From a virus, in IMG/VR virus record IMGVR_UViG_3300029573_000021, positions 11,099 through 35,645 of that record: a DNA stretch of 24,547 bases. One strand, given 5' to 3'. Each line of letters starts with the position of its first letter. The stretch's first letter is position 1. The notes below the pieces were generated by a model. That model worked only from the letters and a program-made list of their open reading frames with translations, was not told the origin of the DNA and ran no database searches. Shown piece by piece: positions 1,001-21,233 of the stretch. The translations under genes and the position numbers were made by a program.

Positions 1001-3172
1001 TTATGCTGGTCCGTAGGGGTAGAAGGTTCCTCCGAAGACCGGGATCTGTATCATGCCCAGGGCGTATTGCGTCACCTGGTCATCTTCGATGTCGGCAATC
1101 AGGAAGGAATAGTCGAAGTTGACGCCCGGTTTTTCTTCGGCAAGCATGATTGGGTACACCGTCCCCGGAATGCCGGAGACGTCAACGCCCGTCAATTTGG
1201 CGTCCTGGCCGAATTGGACGTTGAGCCATACTTCCCCGCTGGTCATCGGGAGTTTCACCCAGGAGGAGCCGGAACTGCCCCCCTGCGGGTATTTGCCGAG
1301 CAGATTTCCGTTCAGGTAGAGCGCGCCGGGCTTGATTTGCGCCCCGGTGATGGCTCCCTCCGTATCTTTCTGTACCCGCACCTGGAAGCCGTATTCCGGC
1401 GCGGGCGTGGCTTCCCCCGTCGCCGTCGTGATGTGCTGGCTGATAGTGGGAGATTCCGGCTTGGGGTCGTAGGTCAGGACAATTGTTTTCGGCGCGCCCT
1501 GCATGTTTTCCAGCGTGGAAGACTCGTGAGATTTGGCGTTGATGCTCCTCAATCTTATCCAGTCTTCTATGCTTAAATAGTTCAAAGCTCCATAGGACAA
1601 CGTAATGACGTTGGTCTGCAGGTCGCGGTTCACCGTCTGAATCATGGTGTTGATGTTCTGCCACTCTGGGTTTCCTCCCAGCAGCGAGACGCGGCGGCCC
1701 ATGTATTGGCGCGTCTGCGCTTCTCCCAGCGCGACAAAGGAAATCGTGCCGTCGTAAGGAAGTTCCTGCATGGATTCCCACACCGTTTTTGCAATGTCCC
1801 CATAGGGCACACCTTCCGACGGTTCCGACGATTCCTCTTCTTCCGGCCCGTTGGAGGGCTGCTCCCCGTTGTAGATGCCGTCGATGGGGTAGCTCGCAAA
1901 GGGGCGGTCCATGGTGACCAGATCCACCGAGAATTCTTCCCAAAAGCAGGGCACACCCTGCAAGGTCCCCACATTCTTGAATTTCTCCCGCCACTTGGCA
2001 GAGGCTCTTTCCGGGATGGCGAGACGCTGCTTGATGGTGGCATTGCACCACTTCGGCCTGATGGATTTGGTATGAATTTGGCCGTCCGTCAGTTCATAGC
2101 CCGTGGCCGTGATATTATAGCCTTTCGGCTTGTCTTCCTCCGTTTTGTTCCAGGGCTTCCCGGTGATGACTGGCTTCTTATCATAGGCCTCGAGGGCGTC
2201 CACGTCTTTCATCCATGGGAAATGATTTTTCCAGAAACTGTTGATCATGTCGTTCTGGTCAATCCGGGTCCCCGTCACTTTCATGCGCTGGTAGGACAGG
2301 CTGCCGGCCCTGGTTCCCTGTACCGGTTGAGGATCTTCTACCGGTTCTCCTGTAGAATTATACTTAGAATAATAGAAGTCTACGGACGTTCGGTAAACGA
2401 TGGAATGCGGTAAGGTCGGGTCTCCGTCTTCCGGGTATTTGGACAGGTAAGAGACGCGATAGCCGTTGCTTCCGGTGGTTTCGGCGACAATCGCCACGCA
2501 GGGAGGCACGAGGTCGGCGCGTGGGACAAGGGAAACGTCCATGGCTTTAACATCGTTGGAGGGCTGCAATGGCAGGGAGATAGGCGTCAGGACGTCATAG
2601 TCCGTGATGATCATCTTGGGCCGCGCGCCACTGTAGTCGTAGTACGTGACCATGCGGGGCGACCAGTGGCGGATGGATTGGAGCAGACTTCCAAGGGTGT
2701 CGCATGAGGCGTTCCATGGGATCAGCATTTTGTCGTCGCTGATCCGCAGTTCGTAGTCCGCGGGGTGGTGTTTGGCCAGATTCAGCACCCGGGAAAGGGC
2801 GGAGGAAATGCTTATTTTAGGAATGATTTCATTCCCGCCGCCGGTACTTTGCCACATCGAAAAGACCGGTTTCCATTCGGAATCAAGGGCAAAGCAGTTG
2901 TCCAGGTAATACCAGGGATCGGAAAAGACGATTTTCCAGGCACGGGATGAACCGCTGTAGGTCTTTTCGATGCTGGAAACGAGGCCGGCAAGAATGGTGT
3001 TCCCGTTTTGGGAGATGGTGACGGTGTCGAATTGCCGGAAGGGCAAGACCTCGTCCAGGGCGCGGACGGGATAAACCGCGGTAATGGTGGAGGTGGAAAA
3101 GCTTCTTTGCTCGTGATTGAGGCTCGACGGTTTGAGAGCCAGCAAATCATTGATGGTGATGTCGTGGTTCCT
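1001..3172 (-). CDS. large tail-tip / host-specificity protein (723 aa if AGG start at 3172; 714 aa if TTG at 3145)
   Basis: This is the only long ORF downstream of the tape measure gene. The reading frame is open back to the TAG of the upstream gene (3199-3197). There is no ATG or GTG in that stretch, but AGG is the 9th codon after that stop. The TTG at 3145 is the conservative alternative. Confidence 0.6.
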   Translation of the reverse strand, partial: RNHDITINDLLALKPSSLNHEQRSFSTSTITAVYPVRALDEVLPFRQFDTVTISQNGNTILAGLVSSIEKTYSGSSRAWKIVFSDPWYYLDNCFALDSEWKPVFSMWQSTGGGNEIIPKISISSALSRVLNLAKHHPADYELRISDDKMLIPWNASCDTLGSLLQSIRHWSPRMVTYYDYSGARPKMIITDYDVLTPISLPLQPSNDVKAMDVSLVPRADLVPPCVAIVAETTGSNGYRVSYLSKYPEDGDPTLPHSIVYRTSVDFYYSKYNSTGEPVEDPQPVQGTRAGSLSYQRMKVTGTRIDQNDMINSFWKNHFPWMKDVDALEAYDKKPVITGKPWNKTEEDKPKGYNITATGYELTDGQIHTKSIRPKWCNATIKQRLAIPERASAKWREKFKNVGTLQGVPCFWEEFSVDLVTMDRPFASYPIDGIYNGEQPSNGPEEEESSEPSEGVPYGDIAKTVWESMQELPYDGTISFVALGEAQTRQYMGRRVSLLGGNPEWQNINTMIQTVNRDLQTNVITLSYGALNYLSIEDWIRLRSINAKSHESSTLENMQGAPKTIVLTYDPKPESPTISQHITTATGEATPAPEYGFQVRVQKDTEGAITGAQIKPGALYLNGNLLGKYPQGGSSGSSWVKLPMTSGEVWLNVQFGQDAKLTGVDVSGIPGTVYPIMLAEEKPGVNFDYSFLIADIEDDQVTQYALGMIQIPVFGGTFYPYGPA

Positions 3173-3196
3173 GCTGCTTGTAAAAAGGTTAAGGTT

Positions 3197-3646
3197 CTAT
3201 TTATTCCTGTCCTGCATGTTTTTCAAGATATGGACGCATTCCGCAATCCGGTCGTAAATTTGCCCCATCCACAGGAAAAACATTAACGAAAAGAATCCAG
3301 ATAAAAGACAGGCAATGGACAAACCGACCAATTCATTTGTTATACAAACAAAAAATCCGATGATTCCAGCAACAGCTACAAATCCCCCTATCATAGGGAA
3401 ATAATAACCTATAAGGGTTGTAAAGGAAGGCGTTTGACTACTTGATGCCTTTGTCTTCGGTACTATTTTTTTATGATATTTCGCCAATACCTTCTCAAAC
3501 TCTTCCCATTCTTGCCCCCCCTCTTGAAAAATCATGGTTTTCGCGTTGATCTTTTTCTGGTTAAAATAATCTTCCAGAACCTCAAGCGAAACGGGACCTT
3601 CCGTTTTCCCATCAGCGATCGCAATGTAGTACATGTCCTGATTCAT
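3197..3646 (-). CDS. GYF_2-like domain membrane protein (149 aa), moron between tape measure and tail tip
   Basis: ATG start. The N-terminus YYIAIADGKTEGPVSLEVLEDYF...IFQEGGQEWEEFEKV resembles the GYF_2/DUF4339 fold. The C-terminal half has two hydrophobic helices (YFPMIGGFVAVAGIIGFFVCI and LSIACLLSGFFSLMFFLWM). GC content is markedly lower than in the flanking genes. Confidence 0.65.
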   Translation of the reverse strand: MNQDMYYIAIADGKTEGPVSLEVLEDYFNQKKINAKTMIFQEGGQEWEEFEKVLAKYHKKIVPKTKASSSQTPSFTTLIGYYFPMIGGFVAVAGIIGFFVCITNELVGLSIACLLSGFFSLMFFLWMGQIYDRIAECVHILKNMQDRNK

Positions 3647-3680
3647 GCTCTTGTTCTGATACGTTGATTATCCAAAAATG

Positions 3681-5681
3681 TCAAGATACGAGCCAGCCTG
3701 CCACCATATTGAGACCGTTTTTCTGTGCCTGGGACTCTTTTTCGAGCCGTTGAACTCGTGCCTCCATGGATTTGATCGCGGCACGATATTGATTTCCGTC
3801 GGAAGATTCCTTTTCTACCAGGGCAATGATGCGTTTCACTAAATCAAGCGTTTGTGCATAGGTGATTTTATTCTCGCCTCTTGAGGACAGTTCCTGCATT
3901 AATTTTTTCGAGAGAACCTCCATTTCGTTCTCGGTGACCCTGTTATCCTTGAAAGCGTCTTTGATGTACCTGATGATGGCTCTATAGGCTTCATTAATAT
4001 TGGATTTTCGTTCCCGCGCTCTTCCGCTGACATCTCTATCGGGTCTTGACAAGGCGTCGGTCAACGATTTGCTGAATCCGGCCAGGTTAACGTTCTCGAT
4101 GATATTGTCACGTTTGTCCCTCTGGTTCTTGGTTCGCTCTTTAAGCCTGGAGATTTCCTTTTTCAGTTCACGGACTTCGTTTTCCCTTTCCCGTATCTGA
4201 TCTTTGATAGCGTTTTCATTCTCCTTCTGTGCCTGGACAATCCTTTTTTGCTGTTCCACAGCCTCGTTCCTCTCCCGCTGCGCTTCATCAATTTTTTCTT
4301 CGGAAGCATTTATTTTTCGGACTTCTTCAAGCTGTTGCGTGCTTGTAGTTAAAGATTTCTCCGCTTCCGTTTGATCTTCTATCGCCTTTTTAAGCGATTC
4401 CTGCGCCTGTTCTACCGCTTTGTCTCTGTTCTTATATGCTTCACGCAACGCATCATCCGTGCTGACGTCATATCCTGCATCGACAAGCGCGTTATCAGAA
4501 GCCGTCCTTTGTTTTCTTAAAGCGTTCAGGCGATCTAACTGCACCCTTCCATTTCCTGCGGCTAATACATCTTCCATGAATTTCGAGGCTGTTCTAATTT
4601 CTGGGAAGAATGAATTGAACTTGGAATCAAATATTCCCACTTTCTGTAGAAATGTATTGTTTAAAGCAGAAGTATCGCCTCCATTTTCTATTAATTGCTT
4701 AATCCACTCTCTCATATCATTAGATGAGATTCTTCCAAGTGTCGTCCATCCTCCTGCTTGTTCTGCCCCATTTCGGCTTACTTTAGCTATAGAAAGCAAG
4801 TTATCAAATATTTGTTTTTCCGCATTAAGGATTTCTCCATTGAGCTTTTCCCGTTCCTGGTAGGATAAAATATTCTGGTCCTGCAATCCTCCCAAACGTT
4901 CGCTGTTTCTGTTGGTGGCTTCGGTTTTTGACGCTAAATCCCTTTCCGCGTTAGATACATTGATTCTGGCGGATTCTTCCTGTTCTTGTCGATGCCGGGC
5001 ACGGGCTCGAAGTCTAATGTCTTCCTGTTTGCCTTCAAAGAACAAACGCGCGGAAAAACTTTCAGGATCGCCGAACGCTCCGCTATAGTAATCAGTTTCC
5101 AGTTTCAACAAATCCGCCTGATCCTGATTGTCCAGAATCTTTGATTGCAGGTCCAGCAAACGCTGCTGCTCCCGTACAGATTCTTTTAATGCCTGGGCTT
5201 CTTCTTTTCGGTTTCCTGCTATTTTTGCCGTCAAATCATTGGACGTCTTTAAAGCCGCCTCATTATTGAAGGACGCGACGATTTCCTGGGATTCCTTAAT
5301 GGCTTCTTTTTGTTGTTCAAGGGCCTTAGCGAGTTCTTTGGATTTTGCTTCCGTGTTTCCCATCCACTCGTAAAGCTTCGCGCCGGCTAAGACGGCAAGG
5401 GAGACAGCCCCGGCGAGCCCTGCCCCCCCTCCGAAGCCCATCACAAGCCCTGGAATATTATTCATGATACCCCTGATGCCGTATTGCAAGTCGTCAAAAA
5501 AGTAGGCAGCCTGCAAGGCTCCCTGCCCCATATTCTTCACGCTCCGGGTTGCCTGCTGGCTGTCTTTATCCAGCTGCTCCGTAGACTTGTTCAGGGAGTC
5601 AATCTTCTGCTTTGCTTCTTCTACGCCTTTTCCGTCCAGCGTGGACTTGAGCTTGATTTCGATTTCTTTCTTGGTAGCCAT
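3681..5681 (-). CDS. tail tape measure protein (666 aa)
   Basis: The protein is long and rich in K/E/Q coiled coil. It has a Gly-rich hydrophobic segment (PGLVMGFGGGAGLAGAVSLAVLAGA). It sits after a small chaperone-like ORF and before the tail-tip gene. Confidence 0.8.
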   Translation of the reverse strand: MATKKEIEIKLKSTLDGKGVEEAKQKIDSLNKSTEQLDKDSQQATRSVKNMGQGALQAAYFFDDLQYGIRGIMNNIPGLVMGFGGGAGLAGAVSLAVLAGAKLYEWMGNTEAKSKELAKALEQQKEAIKESQEIVASFNNEAALKTSNDLTAKIAGNRKEEAQALKESVREQQRLLDLQSKILDNQDQADLLKLETDYYSGAFGDPESFSARLFFEGKQEDIRLRARARHRQEQEESARINVSNAERDLASKTEATNRNSERLGGLQDQNILSYQEREKLNGEILNAEKQIFDNLLSIAKVSRNGAEQAGGWTTLGRISSNDMREWIKQLIENGGDTSALNNTFLQKVGIFDSKFNSFFPEIRTASKFMEDVLAAGNGRVQLDRLNALRKQRTASDNALVDAGYDVSTDDALREAYKNRDKAVEQAQESLKKAIEDQTEAEKSLTTSTQQLEEVRKINASEEKIDEAQRERNEAVEQQKRIVQAQKENENAIKDQIRERENEVRELKKEISRLKERTKNQRDKRDNIIENVNLAGFSKSLTDALSRPDRDVSGRARERKSNINEAYRAIIRYIKDAFKDNRVTENEMEVLSKKLMQELSSRGENKITYAQTLDLVKRIIALVEKESSDGNQYRAAIKSMEARVQRLEKESQAQKNGLNMVAGWLVS

Positions 5682-5699
5682 GGTGGAATTGATAAGGGG

Positions 5700-5981: not shown

Positions 5982-6001
5982 GAATAATGGTTGATATGTT
6001 G

Positions 6002-7516: not shown

Positions 7517-7522
7517 GGGCGG

Positions 7523-8053: not shown

Positions 8054-8118
8054 GAGTATTCTCTTTTAATGGTTGGTTGTTAATATGATTGAACTTGTAA
8101 GAAAAACTTTACTGTTGC

Positions 8119-8370
8119 CTATTTTTCCAACTTCCGTTCGATATTCTCAATTCTGACGGCAAGAAGTTGGATTGCCTTGGCCGTCTCGACCTGGGCCTGT
8201 GTCTGCATGGTCATCAGGTCACACAGCCGGTCATTATGGCGTCCCATGACATCCCCGATGTACCAGCAGGAAGCGCCGCAAATGACCAGCGACAGCATGA
8301 CGCAGGCAAACACGGGTGACGCCTTGGCAAAATCCATGAAACGCGCCGGTACTTCGGAGAGTTTGCACAT
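8119..8370 (-). CDS. single-pass membrane protein with C-terminal coiled coil (83 aa); holin or i-spanin-like lysis accessory
   Basis: ATG start 5 nt after the upstream stop. It has a transmembrane helix (SPVFACVMLSLVICGASCWYI) followed by an amphipathic helix. It lies directly upstream of the endolysin. Confidence 0.5.
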   Translation of the reverse strand: MCKLSEVPARFMDFAKASPVFACVMLSLVICGASCWYIGDVMGRHNDRLCDLMTMQTQAQVETAKAIQLLAVRIENIERKLEK

Positions 8371-8374
8371 GGTG

Positions 8375-8698
8375 TTACTTCTTGGAGGGAATTACCTGCA
8401 CAACGGGCGGAACGTCCGTTTCGGGTTGCGCCTGTGAATAGGAGATATGGCCCGGTTCCAGCACCAGGCAGGAGCCGTCCTTGCATACGACCGTCTTGTC
8501 CGGCGTTACATCCACGGAATGACCGCAGCCACCCAGCAAAGCGGAAGCCGCATAGGCCGCCCCTGCCAGGACTACCCACAAAAGGCGTTCCCACCACTTC
8601 AGGCCGGTTTTAGTTTTACTCTTTTCGTAGGCATCTTTCATGCCCTGCTTCCCCGCCTCAAGGGCGGCCTGCTTTTGCTCGTCACTTAACTTACTCAT
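8375..8698 (-). CDS. membrane or lipoprotein-like lysis accessory protein (107 aa)
   Basis: I chose the internal ATG at 8698, which overlaps the upstream stop (ATGAGTAA), over the longer ORF-track start at 8815. The protein has a charged N-terminus, then the hydrophobic LLWVVLAGAAYAASALLGGC with a lipobox-like LGGC. Confidence 0.5.
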   Translation of the reverse strand: MSKLSDEQKQAALEAGKQGMKDAYEKSKTKTGLKWWERLLWVVLAGAAYAASALLGGCGHSVDVTPDKTVVCKDGSCLVLEPGHISYSQAQPETDVPPVVQVIPSKK

Positions 8699-9098
8699 GG
8701 TTTTGCTCTGTGAAATATTTAAAAAATGCCACGGCGGCGGGGTCCGTGATGATGAATTCCGGGTAGTCCGCAGACGTGAATGTCCGGCGCCCACCATCCG
8801 CATTGACGGCCTCAACCGTAAGGATCACCGCCTCTGTGGACTGGTAATTGTCTGCATCTCCAGTCGGCGCCTGGAATACCCAGTTGCACCGCACCCAAAC
8901 CTGCACCGCTTGCCAGTCCTCGTCCATGCCGGCGATCGCGGCCGCCGCTGCTTTCAAGGCCGGGGCTTGGTCGGCGGGTATATCCGCTTGTGTATAGCAG
9001 AGGGAGAGTACAAAGCCGTTATTGTCTGGAAATCTGGCGGTCATAACAAATTCGTTCCACTGTCCGGGCTTAGGGAACTGTAAATGTATCTCTTGCAT
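8691..9098 (-). CDS. hypothetical structural-module protein (135 aa)
   Basis: ATG start 5 nt after the fibre gene stop. Spacing is tight and codon usage matches the neighbours. I recognise no motif. Confidence 0.55.
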   Translation of the reverse strand: MQEIHLQFPKPGQWNEFVMTARFPDNNGFVLSLCYTQADIPADQAPALKAAAAAIAGMDEDWQAVQVWVRCNWVFQAPTGDADNYQSTEAVILTVEAVNADGGRRTFTSADYPEFIITDPAAVAFFKYFTEQNHE

Positions 9099-9102
9099 GG
9101 TG

Positions 9103-10776
9103 TTATTGCGCTAATTGGTTGATTTCTACAACGGCGGCCTCGGCGTAATGGTGGCCGACAAACGCCCACACCTGCCGCGGTTGTCCAGTCGTGTTTGCCG
9201 CCAGCGTCAGGACAACCTGGCCGCCGCCGGACCCTATTTCTTCAGAGGATTGCGTGCACCACACAGCGGCGGGGTCATGTCCGCACATGGTATCGTTCAG
9301 CACATAGATAGCCTCGGAGAGGGTGGAAGACGCCGTCAATGTCACCTCGCCGCCAGAGGCCGGAACTTCCTGAGCAGAAGCCGTTACTTCTGGAACTGGT
9401 TTAGGTGTCACGCCCTCCATTACCGTGTCCTTCATGAGGACCCAGGAGTTGGTTATGCCCAGTGAGGGTGCATTGTCTATCCTCATTCCTCCCATCCGGA
9501 GGCCCGCCTGATAAGTCCCGCTGACTTCGTGCGCCTTGAATTTGGTTGTAAGGCATGCTGTGTTGCCGGAGCCCCAAAAGGAGGAAGCCATATCCATTAC
9601 ATATTGCTTGTCCACAAACAAAGCCCAGCGATTGTAAATCTCCTGGTCATCGGGGTTGGGTGGCGTCATGGTTAATACCATATCGCACAAGTCGTTATTA
9701 AATACTCCCTTCTTCAGGGAGGCGTTAGCGGTAGCAATTGCGTAGCTTGTGTTCAACGACTGGGCTTCCACCAAGGCGGTCACCCATGACGGAATGACGG
9801 ATTCCAGAAAATAGTTGGTGCGGCTCCATTGGCCGGCAGCCGTCATGGTTATCATTCCCTCATAGGAAATGGCATTCTGCCCTGTGGCGGGCAGCGGCAC
9901 ACGGACTCCTTCGATTGCGGTGATCGTGGCGTCGTAGGTCTGCGGCTGCGTCCAGTTATAAGACCCGTCCGGATTAACATCCCCGGTATCTCCTTTCTCG
10001 CCACGGGGTCCTTGGGGACCCTCCGGCCCCTCGGGGCCTTGCGGGCCGGCAGGACCCTGCGGTCCGGTTTCTCCAATGTCGCCTCTTGGTCCCTGTTCTC
10101 CGGTCGCTCCCTGAGGACCTTGAGGTCCTGCGTCGCCCCTGGGACCCTGAGGGCCTTCGGGGCCGGTTTCGCCCGGTTCCCCCTGCGGGCCTGGTGGGCC
10201 TTCGGGACCGGCGTCTCCTTTGGGGATGGTAAACGACAACAGATAAGAGCCCGCTTCCGAGCCTTTCACGGCTTCCGCTGCGGCAGGAGTGCCAGGCTCG
10301 CCGGTAGTGACCCGGTCCACCGAAAGATTGAAATTCTCGGCGTACTTCTTGGCCTGCTCCGCGTACCAGGCGGCGCTTGACGCATTATCAAGCACCACCT
10401 GCACGCAGCCGCTTCCTTCCGGCAGCTGCACGACGACCGCGCCCGCCACGGCCTGCTGTTCGTCCGGCAAGTCAGGCGTTACACGGCCCGCAGAAACAAA
10501 GCATCCGTAGAGCAGCGGTCTTTCCTCGTTTCCGTCGTCCATGAAGACGTCGTAGGACCACCTGCCCGCAGGCACCGAAGCCCAGGAAAGCACGCCGTTA
10601 CCCTCATCGTCGCGGGAAAAGCCGAACTCGGCGACGCCTGTCTTGAGACGGACAGCGCCGCGGAGGGTGACGCCGCTCATGTCGACGGGATCCCCCTGAA
10701 AATCTACCACACGGACGACCAGCGACTGGTTCAGCCCCGTGACGGTCCGGATATCGTATTTGCCTGCCTGCTGCCT
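9103..10776 (-). CDS. collagen-like repeat fibre protein with BACON-like C-terminal domain (557 aa from AGG 10776; ORF track gives GTG 10710)
   Basis: There are 26 uninterrupted Gly-X-Y triplets ([13 protein letters not shown]...GEKGDTG, nt 9985-10218). The C-terminus VTLTASS...[20 protein letters not shown] is BACON-like. The frame is open up to the TGA of the upstream gene, with AGG as the 17th codon and no ATG, GTG or TTG before 10710. Confidence 0.7.
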
Positions 10777-10793
10777 GGGAAAAAAGAGGATGC

Positions 10794-10812
10794 GGGGGCG
10801 CAGCGCGCCCCC
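10794..10812 (-). terminator. GC-rich stem-loop (8-bp stem GGGGGCGC/GCGCCCCC, 3-nt loop) followed on the minus strand by GCATCCTCTTTTTT; possible attenuator or weak terminator
   Basis: The inverted repeat is read directly. The T-run starts 8 nt after the stem, so this is not a textbook intrinsic terminator. It lies between the stop at 10825 and the AGG at 10776. Confidence 0.35.
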
Positions 10813-10824
10813 TGGTGAAACGCG

Positions 10825-11475
10825 TCAGGAACCCGGCGCCGGCGTCACGTCCTGCACATTGGAGGGCGTGAACTGGTACTTGCCGCGATAATCCATTTCG
10901 AACTCGAACTGGGGTGAAGCAATCGCCGTGGTGTGTTCGGGATCCTGCAGGAGGCGCAAGGCGCCATGCGCCGTTCCGACCAGATAGATAGTACCCACGT
11001 CGTTCTGATACCAGAAGTGAAGATACCCCTCAATCTTATTGTCGCCGCCATGTCCGACGGTGGTCGATTCCTCGCCGTTGGCGGGAGGCGCTCCCAAGGC
11101 GAAAGAAAGCTGGAACCATTCGGGGGACATGTCCGGCGTGGTGAAGGTCATCCGCTTGCCGGTCGTGGTGTTCTTGCGCTGCTGGCGATATCCCAGCGCA
11201 CCGCCGTAAAAGCGCGTCACATCCCCTTCGACCTGGGTGGCGACGGACTGGAACGCTCCCAGCAGCCCGAAGCTCACCCAGGGCTGTTCAGGCCCGGCGG
11301 TCGGATCCGTTGGCGGAGACGTCGGAGGCGTCGGAAACTGGTCCGGCCCGGTGACGTAAGAAGCTCCCTCGTCTTCGGTCACCTTGATGCCGTCGGGGAG
11401 GAAAATAGCCAGAACGCCGGTAATCTGCGGCGTGACGTTGCGGTTCGTGAATGTGGGATCGTATGTAGTTGCCCT
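10825..11475 (-). CDS. structural protein with Pro/Thr-rich linker (216 aa from AGG 11475; ORF track gives GTG 11382)
   Basis: The 31 codons upstream of the GTG read ATTYDPTFTNRNVTPQITGVLAIFLPDGIK, which looks like coding sequence. They contain no ATG, GTG or TTG. The AGG lies 15 nt after the upstream stop at 11490. Confidence 0.6.
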   Translation of the reverse strand, partial: RATTYDPTFTNRNVTPQITGVLAIFLPDGIKVTEDEGASYVTGPDQFPTPPTSPPTDPTAGPEQPWVSFGLLGAFQSVATQVEGDVTRFYGGALGYRQQRKNTTTGKRMTFTTPDMSPEWFQLSFALGAPPANGEESTTVGHGGDNKIEGYLHFWYQNDVGTIYLVGTAHGALRLLQDPEHTTAIASPQFEFEMDYRGKYQFTPSNVQDVTPAPGS

Positions 11476-11489
11476 GGTGCTTGAAACGG

Positions 11490-11687
11490 TTAGTAGATGA
11501 TTGTTGCCTTGCCGTCGGCTTCCAGCTTATCGGCGAGTTCTTTCGTAACACGAATATGCGCTCCTTTCAAGAACGTTGAGCGCCCTATCCTCACTTCTTT
11601 GGACAGAATGAGGATGTTCGTGTTGATGACGGCGGCCTGCTCCGTCTTCTTCTCCGGTTCGGTGTTGGCTGCAGCTGCTTTGCTCAT
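11490..11687 (-). CDS. small hypothetical virion-module protein (65 aa)
   Basis: The ATG overlaps the upstream stop (ATGA), which suggests translational coupling within the late operon. Confidence 0.5.
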   Translation of the reverse strand: MSKAAAANTEPEKKTEQAAVINTNILILSKEVRIGRSTFLKGAHIRVTKELADKLEADGKATIIY

Positions 11688-11881
11688 TTGATGTCAACAA
11701 GGTTGAGGGTTGCCAGAGCTTCCGCGATGGTCGCGGGAAGTTCCGGGGTGTCGGTTTTCATGAAGAGGCTGATGACCAGCCCTCCATCCAGTTCTGTTTT
11801 CGTGCTGACGACGCGGACGGTCACCTTGTCCTGGTGATCCCCCTGGTCTTTTTGCTGTTTATTTTTTGGCGTTCTGCTCAT
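11684..11881 (-). CDS. small hypothetical virion-module protein (65 aa)
   Basis: ATG start overlapping the 3' end of the upstream gene by 23 nt. Same strand and operon as its neighbours. Confidence 0.5.
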   Translation of the reverse strand: MSRTPKNKQQKDQGDHQDKVTVRVVSTKTELDGGLVISLFMKTDTPELPATIAEALATLNLVDIK

Positions 11882-14651: not shown

Positions 14652-14672
14652 GATGGAGGCGGGTTGGGTGGG

Positions 14673-15596
14673 TTAAGCCGTGGCCGTCGCGTCGATGCGG
14701 ACGATGGCGCTGGGGTTCGTCAGCTTGGTCAGCGAGTAGACGCGGTTGGTTACCAGCGTCAAAGCGGGCGTCGGCTTGTATTCAGTGATGACTTCTCGGC
14801 GAAGCTTGCCGGAAAGACCGAAGGTCTTGACGGCGGAGGCGTCGAACTGCGTCGGGGAGTCTTCCTTGTACAGGACATAGACTTCGTTTTCCATGATGGT
14901 TTTCGCGTCGCCGGAAGCGTCGCGGTACGGCATGGAGGCGATGTAAATATCCCGGATGGGCCGGATCAGAGCCATGCGAAGAAGGTCTTCGTTGAACAGG
15001 CCGACGCTGTTGAAGGAAACCACCTGACGCGCGAGCGTGTTGGAGCGAAGCAGCTGCCATGCGTTGATGCCGAAGACAATCGTGTTCGGCATGTGTCCGG
15101 TTGCGGCGTTGATGGACAGGATCGCCTGGTCCAGATCCGCCAACGGGTTTTTCTGCTGGTTGGCCCAGTCACCCATCCCGGAAGCGGCCGGAAGCTGGCT
15201 CATCAGAAGCTTGGCGCGTTCGTATTCGTACGACGTCACAAACTGGGATTCGATGAGTTTGTATTCCGCCAGGGTGATGGCCTGCGCCTTTTCCCGGTTG
15301 ACGCCCAGCAAGGCGTCAGGGATGGGCAGCGTCAAGCCGTAGCCCTGAAGGGTGTCGGTTTCGTTTCTTCCGCGCAGGACGGTCTGGCGGGGAGGTTCGC
15401 CCGGTCCCACCTGGATGGGCTGGACGGTGAAGGCCGATTCCGTGTCCCAGACCTTGTACTGGAAATTCAGGTCATAGACCGGGACGATCGGAGCGATGCG
15501 GCTGATGATGGAGTTCTCTTCGGTGTTCCCGGACCCCGCGGAATAGGAGGTCAGGACATCGGTGAACTGAACGGCGGAGCAAAATGGAGTAGCCCT
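14673..15596 (-). CDS. major capsid protein, HK97 fold (lambda gpE / Mu gpT-like), 307 aa from AGG 15596 (ORF track gives GTG 15410)
   Basis: It follows the protease/scaffold and decoration genes. The 62 codons upstream of GTG 15410 read ATPFCSAVQFTDVLTSYSAGSGNTEENSIISRIAPIVPVYDLNFQYKVWDTESAFTVQPIQ with no ATG, GTG or TTG. AGG is the 10th codon after the in-frame TAA at 15626-15624. Confidence 0.75.
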   Translation of the reverse strand, partial: RATPFCSAVQFTDVLTSYSAGSGNTEENSIISRIAPIVPVYDLNFQYKVWDTESAFTVQPIQVGPGEPPRQTVLRGRNETDTLQGYGLTLPIPDALLGVNREKAQAITLAEYKLIESQFVTSYEYERAKLLMSQLPAASGMGDWANQQKNPLADLDQAILSINAATGHMPNTIVFGINAWQLLRSNTLARQVVSFNSVGLFNEDLLRMALIRPIRDIYIASMPYRDASGDAKTIMENEVYVLYKEDSPTQFDASAVKTFGLSGKLRREVITEYKPTPALTLVTNRVYSLTKLTNPSAIVRIDATATA

Positions 15597-15630
15597 TGTT
15601 CTTGGTCTTTCTGTTGGTTGGGGTTAATAG

Positions 15631-16062: not shown

Positions 16063-16083
16063 TGGTTTGATCAGGTTGAATAA

Positions 16084-17196
16084 TTAACGTTGGGCGGAGA
16101 CGATGAAGCCCTCTTCGGTCGCCTTCTGGCAGGCGTCATAGCGCTTCATGCCGTCCTTGATGAGTTCGTTCACGCGGTTGTTGAATCCGTCAATGGATTC
16201 CTTCTTGCGGAATGGGTCAGGGGGATTCAGAGTCGCGCGGCGGTTCAGAGGCGTCCTTTGCGGAAGCTTCTTCTGCTCCGGCTGCTCCTGTTTCTGCGGG
16301 CCCGCCTGGCGGTTGAGCGCGCGGATAAAGGCGTTCAGCGCGGCGGGGCTTTCCCGGAGAGAGTTTTTCAGCTCTTCCCGGCGTTCTTCCGTGAATTCCT
16401 CGCGTTCTTCCTCGTCCAGCGCGTTTTCGTACGTGCTGACGGCGTCGTCCACTTCGGCGTTCACGTGGTCTTTCTCACGCTTTTCCAGCGAGAGCAGTTC
16501 ATCAAGTCGTCCGAGGATCGCCCTGCTCATGTCGTCGGTGCCGTCAAATTCGACATCCAGCTTGTCAAGCAGGGAATCGAACAGGGCCCGCTGGGCCTTG
16601 TCCATTTCCTTGGACGGATATTCTCTATCGTCGTTTTCCATATTGGTGTTCTGGGTTGTTTCCCCCTCTTCGGGGCTTTTGGGTTCGCCCCCGGCCTCGT
16701 CGGAGGCGGGGGAAGTCTGTCGGTTGACCAGAGGCCGCTTTCCCTTGATGCGCGGCCGGTTGGTCAGAGCGAAGCCGGTCAGACGCGACGGGCGGTAGAC
16801 GCCGTCCGTCAAAGTCATGCCTTCGCCATATTCGGTGGATGATTGCGTGTATTCCTTGTCCTGCAGCATCTTCAGGCCGCGCGGCGTCCATTCGATGAAC
16901 CCGTAGAGTTCCAGCGTGCCGGAAGGGTCGCGGTAGGTGTCCAGCCTCTTGAGCCATCCGAGGGCCCGAGTATCGCGGGAAAGGTCGTGGCTCAGGTGGT
17001 CGCCGTCGATGAGCATGCCCGGGCCGTCAAAGGTGCGGGCGTTGAAGTCGTCCACCATGTCCCGGATCGCCTGCTCGTCGATGCGCAACACGGCGGGACC
17101 CTCGCCGTAGTCAACGTCATGGTCTCCGCTTTTCTCAACGTGGAACCAGCCGTTGGCGGGTCGGGACAGGTCATTGATTTGTTTCGTGCTGATCAT
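16084..17196 (-). CDS. prohead protease / scaffold fusion, Mu gpI-like (370 aa)
   Basis: ATG start. The N-terminus NGWFHVEKSGDH...IDGDH resembles Mu-like prophage protein I. The C-terminal half is acidic coiled coil and scaffold-like. Confidence 0.65.
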   Translation of the reverse strand: MISTKQINDLSRPANGWFHVEKSGDHDVDYGEGPAVLRIDEQAIRDMVDDFNARTFDGPGMLIDGDHLSHDLSRDTRALGWLKRLDTYRDPSGTLELYGFIEWTPRGLKMLQDKEYTQSSTEYGEGMTLTDGVYRPSRLTGFALTNRPRIKGKRPLVNRQTSPASDEAGGEPKSPEEGETTQNTNMENDDREYPSKEMDKAQRALFDSLLDKLDVEFDGTDDMSRAILGRLDELLSLEKREKDHVNAEVDDAVSTYENALDEEEREEFTEERREELKNSLRESPAALNAFIRALNRQAGPQKQEQPEQKKLPQRTPLNRRATLNPPDPFRKKESIDGFNNRVNELIKDGMKRYDACQKATEEGFIVSAQR

Positions 17197-18535
17197 CGGT
17201 AAATCCTTTCATGAGTCCGGCGTAAATCATTTGCTGAAGCTGTTCATAAGCATCGGGCGGAATGAGTGCTTTTTCCGGTTCCCTGTTGGCCGCCGCCGTC
17301 ACCGGAACGGGGTCCTGCGTGTCCTCGATCGACATGCCGATCTTTTCTTCAATCTCGGTCTTCTCGGGGCGGACGCCTCCGTCGGCAAGCGCGGCGATTT
17401 CCTCGGCTTTCTGCAGCGGGGTCTGGACGGTGTCAAAAGTGATGTGGAGGCGGGCCAGCGGTTCGCCGTCTCCCAGGACAAGCGGGCTGATGGCGGCGTT
17501 AAAAGCTTCGGCGACCTTGGAACAGACCGCGGAGACGACCGAATTCCAGCTGTCCGTGTGCGCTCCCCCGGCCAGCGTGCCGGATCCTGATTCATTCAGG
17601 ACGGTCAGAGTGCCGGCCATTACAAACCGCACCTGGTCCTTGTCGGACATGTTGATTCGGGATAGGAAATAGTTTTCGTTGATGTTGGAGGCTTTCAACG
17701 GTTCGGCGGCGCAGCCGGGAGGAAGCACAATGGAGGCTCCCGATTTGAGTTCCTCACAGGCCCGTTCCAGCGCGTCCATGACGGCGGCGCTCGCGTCCTT
17801 GGGCGCCGTGATGATGACCGGGGCGCTCCCGTAGCGGTCCATATGGTTGTCCCACGTAACTTTGGCGTGATTCCGCTCAAAAGAGGCGCGGGTTGCCGGA
17901 AAAAGAATGGGGTTCCGGTGCTCCATGACCACGAGCGTTTCTTCCTCTACGCTCTCGCCCGTGTCGACCCCGATGTAGCACTGGGGATTAAACTGCCATT
18001 CGTTCAGCTCTCCGGGCCGCACCCAGTATCGCTGCGGGATGAATTCAAAGCGGCGGCCCCAGGAATCTTCGATGTATTGGAGGTGGGCGTACCCGTAAAA
18101 CATAGCGGAGGCCAACTGCCCAAAGGCCTGTTGAAGTCCGGTGACGGAGTGATAGAATTCTTCCAGCGCGTTCTGCTGACGCTGGGCTTCCGGGCTGTCG
18201 TCCGCGGCGTCAATCTTCCATCCCTGCATGGAGACGCTTTCAATGAGCCGGGAATAGAGCATGCCCATCAAGCCGTCCGAGTAGATGACCTCGTCCCAAA
18301 TGAGCATTTGGCGGGCAAAGGCTCCACGCCGCGCTTCGTTCCGGGCGTCAATCAGGGTTTGCAGGTCGGCGCCCTGTAACGGGTCCCAATATTCGTACCA
18401 TTGAGGCTGGTTAGGCTTCCGGCTCTGTTCCGTCAACGCTCGCCGGGCCAGGTCCGTTTCAAGCTCCTTGATTCTGGTCTCCTGTTGGGCTACCAGCTTC
18501 GGGGCGTTGAGGATATTTCGGACGGCGTTAAACCT
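17171..18535 (-). CDS. portal protein (Mu gp29 / DUF935-like), 454 aa from AGG 18535 (ORF track gives TTG 18436)
   Basis: It lies downstream of the terminase. The 33 codons upstream of the TTG read FNAVRNILNAPKLVAQQETRIKELETDLARRA, a coiled-coil N-terminus with no ATG, GTG or TTG. The AGG at 18535 lies 23 nt downstream of the tRNA 3' end. Confidence 0.75.
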   Translation of the reverse strand, partial: RFNAVRNILNAPKLVAQQETRIKELETDLARRALTEQSRKPNQPQWYEYWDPLQGADLQTLIDARNEARRGAFARQMLIWDEVIYSDGLMGMLYSRLIESVSMQGWKIDAADDSPEAQRQQNALEEFYHSVTGLQQAFGQLASAMFYGYAHLQYIEDSWGRRFEFIPQRYWVRPGELNEWQFNPQCYIGVDTGESVEEETLVVMEHRNPILFPATRASFERNHAKVTWDNHMDRYGSAPVIITAPKDASAAVMDALERACEELKSGASIVLPPGCAAEPLKASNINENYFLSRINMSDKDQVRFVMAGTLTVLNESGSGTLAGGAHTDSWNSVVSAVCSKVAEAFNAAISPLVLGDGEPLARLHITFDTVQTPLQKAEEIAALADGGVRPEKTEIEEKIGMSIEDTQDPVPVTAAANREPEKALIPPDAYEQLQQMIYAGLMKGFTDDQHETNQ

Positions 18536-18558
18536 GCGGCGGGAGGAAAAGAAAAGGT

Positions 18559-18632
18559 TGGTTGCAGGGGGAGGAGTTGGACCTCCGACATGAGGACAGG
18601 AACCTCATATGATACCGTTTCACCACCCTGCG
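18559..18632 (-). tRNA. 74-nt tRNA, anticodon CCU (reads AGG), with initiator-tRNA-like acceptor stem and encoded CCA
   Basis: Hand-folded cloverleaf: CGCAGGG-UG-GUGA-AACGGUA-UCAU-A-UGAGG-UUCCUGU-CCUCA-UGUC-GGAGG-UCCAACU-CCUCC-CCCUGCA-A-CCA. Acceptor pairs 2-7 are Watson-Crick and 1:72 is a C/A mismatch. U8, G18G19, U33 and purine 37 are present. One deviation is C at position 55 of the T-loop. Confidence 0.6.
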
Positions 18633-18679
18633 ATTGAATATAAATCAACACATATAGATATGTTGATATATTGTCAACC
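18633..18679 (-). promoter_or_regulatory. AT-rich spacer with TTGACA hexamer and nested palindromes upstream of the tRNA
   Basis: On the minus strand, TTGACA lies at 18677-18672. Palindromes are ATCAACA...TGTTGAT (18644-18650 / 18661-18667) and ACATAT-AG-ATATGT (18650-18663). I could not fit a convincing -10 box at 17 nt, so promoter function is tentative. Confidence 0.3.
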
Positions 18680-20053
18680 CTAATATCTCCCGTAAGCGCG
18701 TTTTGATGACACGGGACGGGCGTACCAGGCTCCCAGCGTCCGCGCCAGTCCGCTGTTCCGGCGCGCGTGCCAGGCCATCACAAGGGCGTCGGCCCGGTCT
18801 GGGGAACGAACGCCCCGCTTTGCCATATCTTCTTTGCTTTCAATGCGGACGCGGCCTATTGCGTCGGTTTGGAGTCGTGGAGCAACCAGCTGCTCAATCG
18901 TATCCTCGTCAATGTCGAGGATGAGTTCTTTTTCTTCGATGGCGCGGGCGAGAGCCCGCCATGCTTGGGCGCGGAGGTTGACAAAGGCTTGTGTGTCATC
19001 TGCCGGGAAGCCTCCCCGGTAGGAGTGCACGGGGAAACCCTCAGCCCGGAAGTCGTCAATGATGGGAAGCCCCAGTCCGTCGCCGTCGGCAAAGATGCGG
19101 TCGGCAGAGATGCCGAGTTCGGCGGCCTTTCGGCGGAAACGTCCGCGCGCTCCTACAGTGTCTGGGTCGGCCCAGTGGTCGGCGATGAAAAAACGGTTGC
19201 CCTGTCCGGCCGCGAAGACATTCTCATCACCCCCGGCGGCGAAGTCAAAGCCGCCGCAGGTCTCCCCGGTGTCCAAAAAGGGAGGCGGGTTGTTGAGCAG
19301 CTCCATGATGGCGCGGCGGGAAATGACGGATTGCCCGTCGAGGTCGGTGAATTCGCCGAGGATGGCGGAGCGGTAGAAGGAGGACTGTTCGCCGTATTCT
19401 TTTTTCAGGCGCTCGGCCTTGCCCGGATCGTTGATTTCGATATGCGGGCAATCCTCGTATTTGACGCGGATTTTGTAATAGAGCGATGAATTTTTGTGAA
19501 AGCAGTCGTAAAAGGTGCCGGAATCGGCGCCAGGCGACGAGGTGATGAACGCGTGAAAGAGCGTGCAGCGGGAAACAGCGGTGAAGATGGAGTCGGGAAT
19601 GGTCTTGGCTTCGTCCAGGACGTAAAAGACGGGATCCACGTCGGGCGAGATTTTCGGGTGCCATCCTTCCGCGCGGCCGGCGTTGTCGGTCGAGAAGCCC
19701 ACGGCAAAACCTCCTTCAGGGGTACGGATTTCCGTCTTGTTGAACGTCCAGCCGTCAAAGAAAGGGTTGTCCATGTAGCGGCGGAGCGCGGGAAAGAGCT
19801 GCTTTTCCACCTGCATCCACGACGACGACGTGACCGGCACCTGCCCCCGCGGGAAGCAGGTAAGGAAGTACAGGATGGCCGGAGCGATGCAGTTGCTCGT
19901 CTTGCCGGATCCGTTGGGGGCGACCAGAGCCACGCTTTTCCCTCCCAGGGTCAGCTTGCCGAGGGACAACGCCTTGATGGCTTCCACCTGCCAGGGATAG
20001 GGATCCAGGCGGAGGATGTGGCGAAGGAAGAAGCTGACGGGGAGGTATGGCCT
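18680..20053 (-). CDS. terL: terminase large subunit, 457 aa from AGG 20053 (ORF track gives GTG 19987)
   Basis: It has Walker A (VAPNGSGKTS), Walker B (FYVLDEAK) and a C-terminal nuclease-like acidic motif. The 22 codons upstream of the GTG read PYLPVSFFLRHILRLDPYPWQ, which includes the conserved pWQ motif. They contain no ATG, GTG or TTG. The AGG lies 5 nt after the TerS stop. Confidence 0.85.
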   Translation of the reverse strand, partial: RPYLPVSFFLRHILRLDPYPWQVEAIKALSLGKLTLGGKSVALVAPNGSGKTSNCIAPAILYFLTCFPRGQVPVTSSSWMQVEKQLFPALRRYMDNPFFDGWTFNKTEIRTPEGGFAVGFSTDNAGRAEGWHPKISPDVDPVFYVLDEAKTIPDSIFTAVSRCTLFHAFITSSPGADSGTFYDCFHKNSSLYYKIRVKYEDCPHIEINDPGKAERLKKEYGEQSSFYRSAILGEFTDLDGQSVISRRAIMELLNNPPPFLDTGETCGGFDFAAGGDENVFAAGQGNRFFIADHWADPDTVGARGRFRRKAAELGISADRIFADGDGLGLPIIDDFRAEGFPVHSYRGGFPADDTQAFVNLRAQAWRALARAIEEKELILDIDEDTIEQLVAPRLQTDAIGRVRIESKEDMAKRGVRSPDRADALVMAWHARRNSGLARTLGAWYARPVSSKRAYGRY

Positions 20054-20058
20054 GATGT

Positions 20059-20574
20059 CTAGGGATTGAGCTTGCCAGCGATGGTTTCCAGCGCGGTTTT
20101 CTCGTCTTCCTGGAGCTGGGCCAGCTGCTCGGGGTCCAGGGTGATTTTCCGTTCCAGCGGCGCCCCGGGAACGCCGGCGACGTCCTGGCGGACCCGGTCT
20201 CCAAATTTTTCGGGAGCGAAACGGGCAGCGACTTTCAGCCGGGTTTCAATGGCGAGCTTCTTCGCGGCGACGGAGGCGGAGCCGCATTCCGGGTCAAGGG
20301 CGACTTTTGCGGCTTCATCGGCCAGTTCCTGACACGCGTCGAGCATAGCTTCCGACTGCGCTTCCCGCGAGCGTTGAATGAGTTGGGAAAAATCCGGCCT
20401 GGTTTGCCGCCAGTTCCAGACTGTCCAGACGTCCGGCATGTGATCGTCCGAGCAAATGGACTTCATCGTTTCCCCGTTGGCTAAACGGGAGGCTATCTCG
20501 TCGGCTAATGCCTCCGTATAGAGGCTGGGCCGTCCTATTTTCTTGTTGGCGGTAGGTGATTGCTTCTTTTTCCT
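20059..20574 (-). CDS. terS: terminase small subunit, 171 aa from AGG 20574 (ORF track gives ATG 20466)
   Basis: The 36 codons upstream of the ATG read KKKQSPTANKKIGRPSLYTEALADEIASRLANGET, the typical TerS N-terminal HTH (GRPs.Yt.e.a.eIc.rla.G). An in-frame TAG lies at 20583-20581, only 3 codons before the AGG. There is no ATG, GTG or TTG in between. Confidence 0.8.
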   Translation of the reverse strand, partial: RKKKQSPTANKKIGRPSLYTEALADEIASRLANGETMKSICSDDHMPDVWTVWNWRQTRPDFSQLIQRSREAQSEAMLDACQELADEAAKVALDPECGSASVAAKKLAIETRLKVAARFAPEKFGDRVRQDVAGVPGAPLERKITLDPEQLAQLQEDEKTALETIAGKLNP

Positions 20575-21044: not shown

Positions 21045-21140
21045 AAAGAACAAATTACTTCTCTCATATTCTGCGCCAGGCCGCAAGCAAAAACGGAATG
21101 ACAACTTTTTTCACCTTTTTTCATTTTTTCTCTTGCATTC

Positions 21141-21155: not shown

Positions 21156-21233
21156 TAACTTAATTTTGTTGACGGGAGGTAAGGGACCGAACGAAGACAT
21201 AATCCAAATAACAAAACTAGAAAGAACAAGACA

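Follow-up and report, generated by a model that had tools for sequence, protein, structure and literature searches.

Seven late genes of an Akkermansia muciniphila phage appear to begin at AGG, a codon that would be read in the P site by a neighbouring phage tRNA of initiator type with the anticodon CCU (for the seventh gene, that of the tail tip, this start is a probable one). We assign this reading, which is based on comparative sequence evidence, a probability of about 0.85. It draws directly on the positions and conservation of the codons, the initiator architecture of the tRNA, the interchange of ATG and AGG, and the pairing of anticodon and start codon in unrelated phages.

AGG codons at the 5' ends of late genes

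The window, meaning the whole stretch of 24,547 nucleotides that was analysed, is the late-gene module of the phage and shares 84.6% identity with A. muciniphila phage DTMo-2021a (L078). Of its 27 analysed minus-strand genes, seven have an AGG start and 20 an ATG start, the latter including the genes for protease/scaffold and endolysin. All seven AGG starts fall within the packaging, head and tail module, and the replication genes start with ATG. Since 20 other minus-strand genes start with ATG, AGG is not needed for late expression in general. A preliminary description had stated that the other late genes use ATG and mostly overlap the upstream stop. The start codon was as described, but of the 19 ATG genes preceded by another gene in the window, only eight overlap its stop; the others are mostly separated by gaps of 4-65 nt, and one lies 2.1 kb downstream of its neighbour, across a plus-strand island. 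The seven AGG-started genes are as follows.

20059..20574, minus strand: TerS, small terminase subunit, 171 aa; AGG at 20574-20572
18680..20053, minus strand: TerL, large terminase subunit, 457 aa; AGG at 20053-20051, 5 nt past the TerS stop
17171..18535, minus strand: portal protein, 454 aa; AGG at 18535-18533, 23 nt past the tRNA
14673..15596, minus strand: major capsid protein, 307 aa (245 aa from GTG); AGG at 15596-15594
10825..11475, minus strand: 216-aa virion-module protein; AGG at 11475-11473
9103..10776, minus strand: collagen-repeat tail fibre, 557 aa; AGG at 10776-10774
1001..3172, minus strand: tail-tip/distal tail protein, 723 aa; probable start AGG at 3170-3172, with a TTG at 3145

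All seven codons were found in frame on the minus strand where the preliminary description had placed them, although the AGG of the 216-aa gene lies 14 nt after the upstream stop rather than the 15 nt first given. Chance placement at seven 5' ends had been called very unlikely, in line with our rough estimate of 5e-11 to 1e-7. Internal AGG accounts for 38 of the 7203 codons in the 27 minus-strand genes (0.53%). Because 11 of these 38 are concentrated in a single low-GC gene, AGG is scarce in the core late genes and not everywhere, and the earlier statement that it is otherwise very rare holds for the former only. The hand counts behind that statement were correct (none in the TerL, capsid and 216-aa genes, one in portal at 17284, and one in TerS at 20400).

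A conventional explanation would be that the tRNA is an ordinary elongator tRNA-Arg(CCU) for a rare codon, that translation begins at downstream GTG, TTG or ATG codons or at a near-cognate, and that the AGGs are coincidental. ARAGORN does call the tRNA as tRNA-Arg(CCT), AGG is rare in the phage genes, and the downstream starts are the ones chosen by public gene callers. We nevertheless consider this explanation highly improbable: such a tRNA would find hardly any internal AGG to supplement in the core late genes, and conserved domains begin upstream of the canonical starts. In TerS, the AGG is the third codon past an in-frame TAG (TAG ACC TGC AGG), so that only ACC and TGC precede it and no near-cognate start is available. 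The first canonical start is an ATG 36 codons downstream (aa 37), and two profile matches, to Pfam Sf6_terminase from aa 19 and to phrog_1482 from aa 7, precede it. In TerL, no canonical start occurs before a GTG 22 codons downstream (aa 23), beyond the DPYPWQ motif. The alignment to phrog_5902 begins at aa 12, and distant TerLs that start with ATG contain the PWQ motif, which in the present TerL lies upstream of the GTG. For the major capsid protein, aa 13 aligns with position 14 of the phrog_1005 profile, and distant homologues of 300-320 aa are collinear residue by residue from their own N-terminal Met. The N-termini of TerS, TerL and the capsid protein thus line up with the AGG codons in the comparison with homologues and profiles that had been suggested as a check.

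The portal protein matches Pfam Portal_Mu, and a TTG 33 codons past the AGG is its first canonical start. The tail fibre matches Pfam Collagen and PHROG tail-fibre families. No match in Pfam or PHROG was found for the 216-aa protein, whose first GTG lies 31 codons downstream, and no Pfam or PHROG profile matched the tail-tip protein. The tail-tip site is ambiguous because a TTG lies nine codons downstream of the AGG, as had already been flagged. The AGG and the C at position -1 are kept in DTMo-2021a, the one relative that covers the site, and the sequence further upstream has diverged; the start is probably at the AGG.

Conservation of the start sites

Start codons were compared at six sites in about 50 related contigs, giving 236 AGG, one ATG and no synonymous Arg codon. 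TerS starts with AGG in every relative (47/47, or 29/29 in the codon-substitution comparison set); one relative, L080, has an in-frame ATG 15 codons upstream of this AGG. The codon is also AGG in 50/50 relatives for TerL, despite variation in codons 2-3 and in the spacer, in 50/50 for portal, in 38/38 for the 216-aa gene and in 37/37 for the tail fibre. The capsid gene starts with AGG in 50 relatives and with ATG, at the identical position, in one (L037). Upstream of the AGGs the sequence is variable, with indels and no codon periodicity, and downstream the variation falls at third codon positions. This boundary was seen at portal, where the upstream spacer differs in length and sequence and periodic variation follows directly after the AGG, at the 216-aa gene, and at the tail fibre, where the leader is variable and pyrimidine-rich. 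The G content of leaders is 12% for AGG starts and 13% for ATG starts, as against 28% for coding sequence and likewise for the surroundings of internal AGGs.

Internal AGGs behave differently. At the corresponding positions in relatives, 207 of 403 codons are still AGG and 114 are CGN or AGA, and AAG also occurs. The difference between start and internal AGG substitution is marked (Fisher p = 1.6e-26, with non-independent sequences) and is retained when counted per site (0/6 versus 9/11, p = 0.002). At the starts, the sole alternative seen is ATG: the capsid gene has ATG in L037, and the endolysin gene, which has ATG here, has AGG at the same position in L080. The elongator-only reading is contradicted by these comparative data, as the start AGG never becomes a synonymous Arg codon.

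A sequencing or assembly artefact, or a phage-wide reassignment of AGG to Met, has a negligible probability, and nothing but the strangeness of the AGG starts speaks for either. Identical AGGs are present across some 50 independently assembled metagenomes, and also in an Akkermansia MAG and in the genome of an isolated phage, and the interchange of internal AGGs with CGN, AGA and AAG indicates that internal AGG means Arg. Overall, conservation, N-termini, ATG/AGG swaps and the pairing in other phages agree with the original proposal that these AGGs serve as start codons and correspond to the neighbouring CCU tRNA.

An initiator-type tRNA with a CCU anticodon

Two features lie between the TerL and portal genes.

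18559..18632, minus strand: phage tRNA with initiator-type body, CCU anticodon and encoded CCA end
18633..18679, minus strand: TerL-tRNA spacer, with TTGACA at 18677-18672 and an AT-rich inverted repeat at 18667-18644

The ARAGORN call, Arg(CCT), spans 18559-18632, and the Rfam tRNA score is 49.9 bits. The acceptor stem is CGCAGGG/CCCUGCA-ACCA, almost identical to that of E. coli tRNAfMet (CGCGGGG/CCCCGCAACCA). As in bacterial tRNAfMet, there is a C1xA72 mismatch, with G2:C71 and C3:G70, an encoded CCA, and G:C pairs at 30:40 and 31:39. In the window tRNA two of the three anticodon-stem pairs are G:C (A29:U41, G30:C40, G31:C39); in 11 of 13 family variants 29:41 is also G:C through a compensatory double change, and all three pairs are G:C in about 10-11 of the 13. 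Across the 13 variants cloverleaf pairing is complete (100%), with compensatory changes at six pairs. The C1xA72 mismatch is unchanged in 13/13, though one substitution could restore pairing, and that this initiator hallmark was never repaired also argues against an elongator. Among viral contigs and loci, 89 distinct sequences share the acceptor stem, and 64 of them have a CAU anticodon.

Unlike tRNAfMet, the phage tRNA has the anticodon CCU rather than CAU, an anticodon loop of UUCCUGU rather than CUCAUAA, an unusual T loop (UCCAACU in the window), and U11:A24 instead of A11:U24 in the D stem. The anticodon loop is constant and U11:A24 is present in all 13 variants; the related tRNA of L079 and the L198-type CCU tRNAs described below do have A11:U24. 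Because the anticodon is CCU in every copy, the molecule is not a tRNAfMet in the strict sense. A Watson-Crick or G:U pair at 1:72 is needed for use by EF-Tu, and A20 in the D loop is an ArgRS identity element in E. coli. Among these traits of an elongator tRNA-Arg(CCU), the phage tRNA has the anticodon and neither the 1:72 pair nor A20; its D loop, AACGGUA, has U at the position numbered 20, and all four bases occur at the adjacent position. The change from CAU to CCU that had been read from the adjacent tRNA is consistent with this combination of an initiator body (C1xA72, acceptor stem, G:C anticodon-stem pairs) and a CCU anticodon, an architecture with which the tRNA could act like an initiator.

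The tRNA was present downstream of the TerL 3' end in 43/43 closely related IMG/VR loci that reach past TerL, and TerL starts with ATG in more distant relatives that lack the tRNA, so the co-occurrence that was to be looked for in relatives was observed. In the spacer, TTGACA is kept in 23 of 24 distinct family sequences (L037 has TTTACA), and the arms of the inverted repeat vary yet remain complementary. Promoter-like matches there are weak consensus matches only. The spacer may be a promoter/operator of the tRNA or a hairpin.

The same pairing in unrelated phages

In another phage, L198 (30% GC), a CCU initiator-like tRNA is accompanied by capsid and tail-completion genes that start with AGG 6-8 nt past a GGAG-type Shine-Dalgarno sequence, and the capsid protein aligns with phrog_283 over residues 2-362 (3-380 of 385 in the profile). 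In other phages with CUU tRNAs, portal, capsid and major tail genes start with AAG after a Shine-Dalgarno sequence. The start codon thus follows the tRNA anticodon across lineages, CCU with AGG and CUU with AAG.

These observations bear on the suggestion that AGG is a weak start, used by the host CAU initiator with a middle-position mismatch for deliberately low expression, and that the adjacent tRNA is unrelated. This appears improbable, since the major capsid and portal proteins must be made at high or defined levels, the tRNA and the AGG starts co-occur perfectly, and elsewhere the start codon tracks the anticodon. It is quite likely that phages evolved natural orthogonal initiation more than once, with CCU, CUU and CCC/CCCU (8-nt anticodon loop) initiators serving private AGG, AAG and GGG/GGU virion starts. 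If so, initiation with a CAU anticodon would not be universal, and first residues other than Met would be possible. Private starts might then also allow late genes to be timed, or to be protected, for instance when the host attacks the initiator tRNA.

Proposed mechanism and purpose

In the mechanism proposed here, the tRNA would be expressed with the late region, perhaps under a TTGACA promoter of its own, then processed and aminoacylated. Arginine is a plausible charge because C35 and U36 are ArgRS determinants. The CAU anticodon, the main MetRS determinant, is lost, so methionine is unlikely; MetRS is almost certainly not the enzyme that charges this tRNA, and judged from the anticodon the first residue of the AGG-started proteins is at least as likely to be arginine or another residue as methionine. 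The tRNA may be formylated, which is possible because the determinants C1xA72, G2:C71 and C3:G70 are present. It would be accepted by IF2 and IF3 through its initiator features and would pair with AGG in G-poor leaders that lack a Shine-Dalgarno sequence.

Such a system may provide a private initiation channel or timing lock for virion genes, it may confer resistance when the host attacks the initiator tRNA, or it may reflect near-neutral drift; the translational lock, or insulation from host or satellites, put forward originally is speculation. Once the tRNA exists, near-neutral drift fits the ATG/AGG turnover among relatives as well as a lock does. With the same mechanism and no lock, starts would drift between ATG and AGG by a single T/G change, and the tRNA would become indispensable by a ratchet, with no regulatory or defensive role. 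This is a serious possibility, if somewhat short of an even chance. Between close relatives, flips in both directions are seen (the capsid start in L037 and that of endolysin in L080), AGG and ATG leaders are alike, and AGG is used by only seven of 27 genes, with high-quantity products such as protease/scaffold among the ATG genes. Against this, AGG is fixed at six sites across about 50 contigs, with one reversion, an alternative start marks the same gene class (portal, capsid, tail) in three unrelated lineages, and the origin of the tRNA still requires an initial advantage.

Relation to known systems and significance

Every natural initiator tRNA described so far has, to our knowledge, a CAU anticodon. 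In a full-text literature search, non-CAU initiators were found as laboratory constructs only, and no natural private start codon was found. Varshney and RajBhandary reportedly engineered an amber initiator tRNA. The phage tRNA resembles engineered initiators in combining an initiator body with an altered anticodon and a complementary non-canonical start on chosen genes. Those are laboratory constructs used in E. coli with Shine-Dalgarno-led reporters; the phage tRNA, by contrast, is natural, is conserved across a phage family, and would serve essential virion genes that lack a Shine-Dalgarno sequence.

Suppressor tRNAs are carried by crAss-like and Lak phages, which recode stop codons in late genes. 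There, as here, late or structural genes are where one finds most of a codon whose meaning is altered by a phage-borne tRNA, with mis-annotation by standard gene callers as a consequence. What changes in those phages is a stop codon, which elongation reads as sense; here a sense codon, AGG, would be read at initiation, and internal AGG stays Arg. T4-like phages carry an elongator tRNA-Arg for rare AGA/AGG codons. The present tRNA is likewise phage-encoded, with an Arg-type anticodon for a codon rare in phage genes, but it has an initiator-type acceptor end and no A20, and its codon is nearly absent within the genes around it and fixed at their first position. In every E. coli strain tested except one, no other non-canonical pair was as strong as an engineered i-tRNA(CCU) with an AGG start, for which the increases ranged from 35- to 402-fold (bioRxiv 10.64898/2026.04.16.719103). 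The mechanism is therefore feasible.

Six or seven essential genes are cut short by standard gene callers in all public copies of this phage family (for example, capsid to 245 instead of 307 aa and TerS to 135 instead of 171 aa), and starts in other phages are probably mis-annotated in a similar way. If the system functions as we infer, initiator/start-codon pairs tuned by evolution, one of them without a Shine-Dalgarno sequence, would be available as parts for synthetic biology. The phage would also be a natural exception to the near-universal CAU rule, one that is directly testable because records exist both for DTMo-2021a, an isolated phage, and for the strain that is its host, A. muciniphila NBRC 114322. 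Such a system would represent a new axis of phage-host conflict and would raise questions about the N-terminal residue, formylation and stability of the virion proteins.

Gene order of the phage module

The window is a phage module that runs leftward, on the minus strand. It shows 84.6% identity over 6 kb to the isolated Akkermansia phage DTMo-2021a (CP084202.1, host A. muciniphila NBRC 114322). An A. muciniphila metagenome-assembled genome (MAG) carries, on a contig of 283 kb, a tRNA identical to that of the window. The genes are arranged in the following order.

Replication initiator, DnaC-like helicase loader, low-GC island with one plus-strand gene
TerS, TerL, one tRNA, portal protein, head protease/scaffold, major capsid protein
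Several small head/tail genes, 216-aa protein, collagen-repeat fibre, endolysin, distal tail genes

The low-GC island (21000-23000, 39-46% against about 58-60%) lies between the replication and packaging modules. Its gene at 21599-22903 (+), the sole plus-strand gene, encodes 434 amino acids with multiple HTH and HNH/homing-endonuclease-like matches; it probably arrived by insertion, as a mobile or regulatory gene. In the tail region, a 666-aa gene at 3681-5681 (-), located in a stretch of 44% GC, carries 11 AGG and 13 AGA codons, far above the other late genes, and probably represents a receptor-binding module of recent acquisition whose codon usage is foreign. These 11 codons show that internal AGGs are tolerated.

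Late genes with proposed AGG starts

The preliminary description had proposed that seven late genes start at AGG.

20574 (-), TerS
20053 (-), TerL
18535 (-), portal protein
15596 (-), major capsid protein
11475 (-), 216-aa protein
10776 (-), collagen-like fibre
3172 (-), tail tip, ambiguous because of a nearby TTG

Stop-to-stop frames and hand-checked codons bore out the AGG at all seven positions, and from the upstream boundary to the AGG none of these genes contains ATG, GTG or TTG. In TerS the AGG follows an in-frame TAG after just two codons, ACC and TGC, so that there is no near-cognate codon to use. The internal AGGs that had been counted in the preliminary description were correct on recount; of 7203 internal codons 38 are AGG, with 11 of these in one low-GC gene, and the chance of AGG at all seven 5' ends was roughly estimated at 5e-11 to 1e-7. 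The accompanying statement that late genes with ATG mostly overlap the upstream stop was too strong, as fewer than half do.

Comparison of N-termini with homologues and profiles showed that the coding regions of TerS, TerL and capsid reach the AGG. When started there, TerS matches Pfam Sf6_terminase from residue 19 and phrog_1482 from residue 7, with its first ATG only at residue 37. The profile match of TerL begins at residue 12 (first GTG, residue 23), and a PWQ motif that is cut off in the GTG model is present in distant TerLs that start with ATG. Residue 13 of the capsid aligns to position 14 of phrog_1005, and no GTG occurs before residue 63. When the 307-aa capsid was used in an exhaustive HMMER search, 164 relatives were recovered; the distant full-length ones among them (300-320 aa) run collinear with it from the Met at which they begin, which falls within a few residues of the AGG. 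A protein search with the first 120 amino acids returned short fragments only. Judged from these alignments, the coding regions do extend up to the AGG. Public gene calls of this phage family (contigs L076, L077 and L080; proteins P0001-P0006) are systematically too short at the AGG-start genes, with predicted lengths of 135 aa for TerS, 435 for TerL, 421 for portal, 245 for capsid, 185 for the 216-aa protein and 525 for the fibre. The portal call of L080 is over-extended across the tRNA.

Start sites among relatives

The tRNA lies about 50 nt past TerL in 43 of 43 close IMG/VR loci (TerL 87-99% identical) that reach beyond the TerL 3' end. Across the six start sites that many relatives cover, AGG was counted 236 times, ATG once, and CGN or AGA never. 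Internal AGGs of the same genes are retained in 207 of 403 cases and otherwise replaced mostly by CGN, AGA or AAG, so internal AGG behaves as an ordinary arginine codon. Ahead of each AGG the sequence varies, with indels and without codon periodicity, and third-position variation sets in directly after the AGG. The leaders contain 12% G before AGG starts and 13% before ATG starts, against 28% in coding sequence and around internal AGGs; neither kind of start has a Shine-Dalgarno sequence ahead of it in the window phage. The complete isolate genome has the same seven AGG starts, every one within the late module.

The clearest evidence from these comparisons is two direct exchanges of start codon. 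At the capsid start, one relative (L037) has ATG at the position where 50 others have AGG, and the endolysin starts with ATG in the window (8053) and with AGG in L080, where the surroundings of the start are otherwise nearly identical.

In L080, a more divergent relative, the TerS gene (L080:2378-2938) has an in-frame ATG 15 codons upstream of the conserved AGG, and either could be its start. Codon 72 of the fibre (window 10561-10563, -) is AGG in 10 relatives and ATG in 24. No other internal AGG varies to ATG; the rest alternate with Arg or Lys codons. A simple exchange between Arg and Met could explain this, as could an internal start for a shorter isoform. An extended pairing of G37 in the tRNA with C(-1) in the mRNA, suggested by analogy with A37:U(-1) pairing (PMC10018350), is not claimed here. 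C(-1) precedes 6 of 7 AGG and 12 of 20 ATG starts (p = 0.36), and base composition can account for it.

An initiator-like tRNA with a CCU anticodon

18559-18632 (-), tRNA between TerL and portal
18633-18679 (-), TerL-tRNA spacer

The tRNA, CGCAGGGUGGUGAAACGGUAUCAUAUGAGGUUCCUGUCCUCAUGUCGGAGGUCCAACUCCUCCCCCUGCAACCA, was assigned as Arg(CCU) by ARAGORN. It has a C1xA72 mismatch followed by G2:C71 and C3:G70, an acceptor end almost that of E. coli tRNAfMet, and G:C pairs at 30:40 and 31:39 of the anticodon stem. Helix positions are paired in all 13 variants from related phages, with compensatory double changes at six pairs; A29:U41 of the window changes in this way to G29:C41, so that 11 of the 13 have G:C at 29:41. 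C1xA72 and the loop UUCCUGU are constant. Among 89 distinct sequences with this acceptor stem, from a viral-contig scan and the loci of the earlier comparisons, the anticodon is CAU in 64, and the stem is thereby shown empirically to be one of initiators. Departures from the initiator canon are U11:A24, the T loop UCCAACU and the lack of A20. By its sequence, the molecule is best described as an initiator in all but anticodon. Position 55, within that T loop, is C and not the near-universal U, which a few variants have, and in the D-loop GG the second position can be G, A, C or U; both suggest relaxed elbow contacts.

The spacer retains TTGACA in 23 of 24 distinct family spacers (TTTACA in L037) and contains an AT-rich inverted repeat whose arms differ among variants with complementarity kept (ATCAACA/TGTTGAT in the window, ACATATC/GATATGT in others). 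Promoter searches upstream of the tRNA gave weak consensus matches only, despite the conserved TTGACA. The spacer may hold a promoter/operator through which the tRNA is controlled separately, or else a hairpin.

The same pairing in unrelated phages

Pattern scans recovered further CCU initiator-like tRNAs in which the canonical loop is altered at position 35 only (CUCCUAA). They come from AT-rich gut phages and from seven other species-level genomes (MAGs), which belong to other phyla. The unrelated, mostly AT-rich phages are L198, L086, L119, L156, L209, L121, L201, L207 and L214. CCU initiator-like tRNAs of any loop sequence occur in 8 of 185,579 species-representative genomes (L217, L218, L219, L222, L223, L224, L225 and L227), namely A. 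muciniphila, whose tRNA is that of the window, and MAGs labelled Tenericutes, Clostridia (two), Eubacteriales, Bacilli, 'bacterium' and Alphaproteobacteria. The CCU initiator-like tRNA is rare and scattered across the phylogeny.

In L198 (30% GC) the portal, capsid, minor head protein and tail-completion protein genes start at AGG, 6-8 nt past a GGAG-type purine motif resembling a Shine-Dalgarno sequence. PHROG alignments of its capsid and tail-completion protein begin at residue 2, capsid residues 2-362 aligning to 3-380 of the 385 positions of phrog_283. In phages with CUU initiator-like tRNAs (loop CUCUUUA), AAG is the start of the portal, capsid and major tail genes and comes directly past a stop codon and a strong Shine-Dalgarno sequence; one of these frames lacks ATG, GTG and TTG throughout.

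L198, tRNA at reverse-strand position 514
L198:3390-4484, 8336-9634, 2224-2652 and 1823-2224 (all -), AGG-start genes
L111:7469-8938 (+), AAG start in a CUU-tRNA phage
L116, CUU-tRNA phage with AAG starts
L143:7001-7894, 4978-5421 and 10380-11837 (all -), AAG starts in a CUU-tRNA phage
L079:2035-2110, tRNA between TerL and portal
L079, starts near 593-597, 2128-2132 and 5038-5042

L079, a single contig, is a distant relative of the window phage with shared gene order and a capsid 39% identical. Its tRNA has all three initiator hallmarks (C1xA72, A11:U24 and the GGG/CCC pairs) and an 8-nt anticodon loop, AUCCCUUA, with CCCT as the anticodon called by ARAGORN. Canonical starts are missing from the TerL, portal and capsid frames of this contig, and these frames begin with in-frame GGU, GGG and GGG after A, A and U, respectively. 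The start could be a GGN codon read by CCC or a four-base AGGN site decoded as a quadruplet, GGG/GGU with CCC being the simpler reading. A metagenome scan with the L079 TerL found only relatives at 36-38% identity, all without the tRNA, and relatives of the L079 portal among 5.8 billion proteins did not exceed 27% identity. No convincing TTA starts were found in L097, where a UAA anticodon sits on an initiator-like acceptor stem (tRNA 5064-5140). Two Myxococcales MAGs (L220, L226) have canonical initiator acceptor stems with odd anticodon loops that ARAGORN could not assign.

In each of these cases the start codon follows the anticodon, and nothing argues more strongly for reading of these codons by the tRNA. 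As to purpose, the turnover between ATG and AGG among relatives and the many late genes with ATG are compatible with a near-neutral ratchet. Pure neutrality is opposed by the stability of the six AGG sites and by the marking of one gene class (portal, capsid, tail) in unrelated lineages.

Proposed mechanism and significance

For reading of AGG by the CCU tRNA, we propose that the tRNA would be transcribed inside the late region, perhaps under its own controlled promoter at the conserved TTGACA and AT-rich inverted repeat just upstream. It would then be charged, perhaps formylated, and taken as an initiator into the P site, where it would pair with AGG. Such a mechanism is feasible because an engineered E. 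coli i-tRNA(CCU) works with an AGG start, as the best non-canonical pair in all tested strains but one (bioRxiv 10.64898/2026.04.16.719103). Loss of CAU argues against Met as the initiating amino acid; C35 and U36 favour Arg, a reading weakened by the missing A20.

A translational lock, the purpose first suggested for the AGG starts, is possible; another option is that they make the phage resistant when the host attacks the initiator tRNA. A full-text literature search for a natural non-CAU initiator found engineered ones only. Mechanistically, the system of the window would be a natural version of that known engineered design, and the counterpart, at start codons, of phage recoding by suppressor tRNAs.
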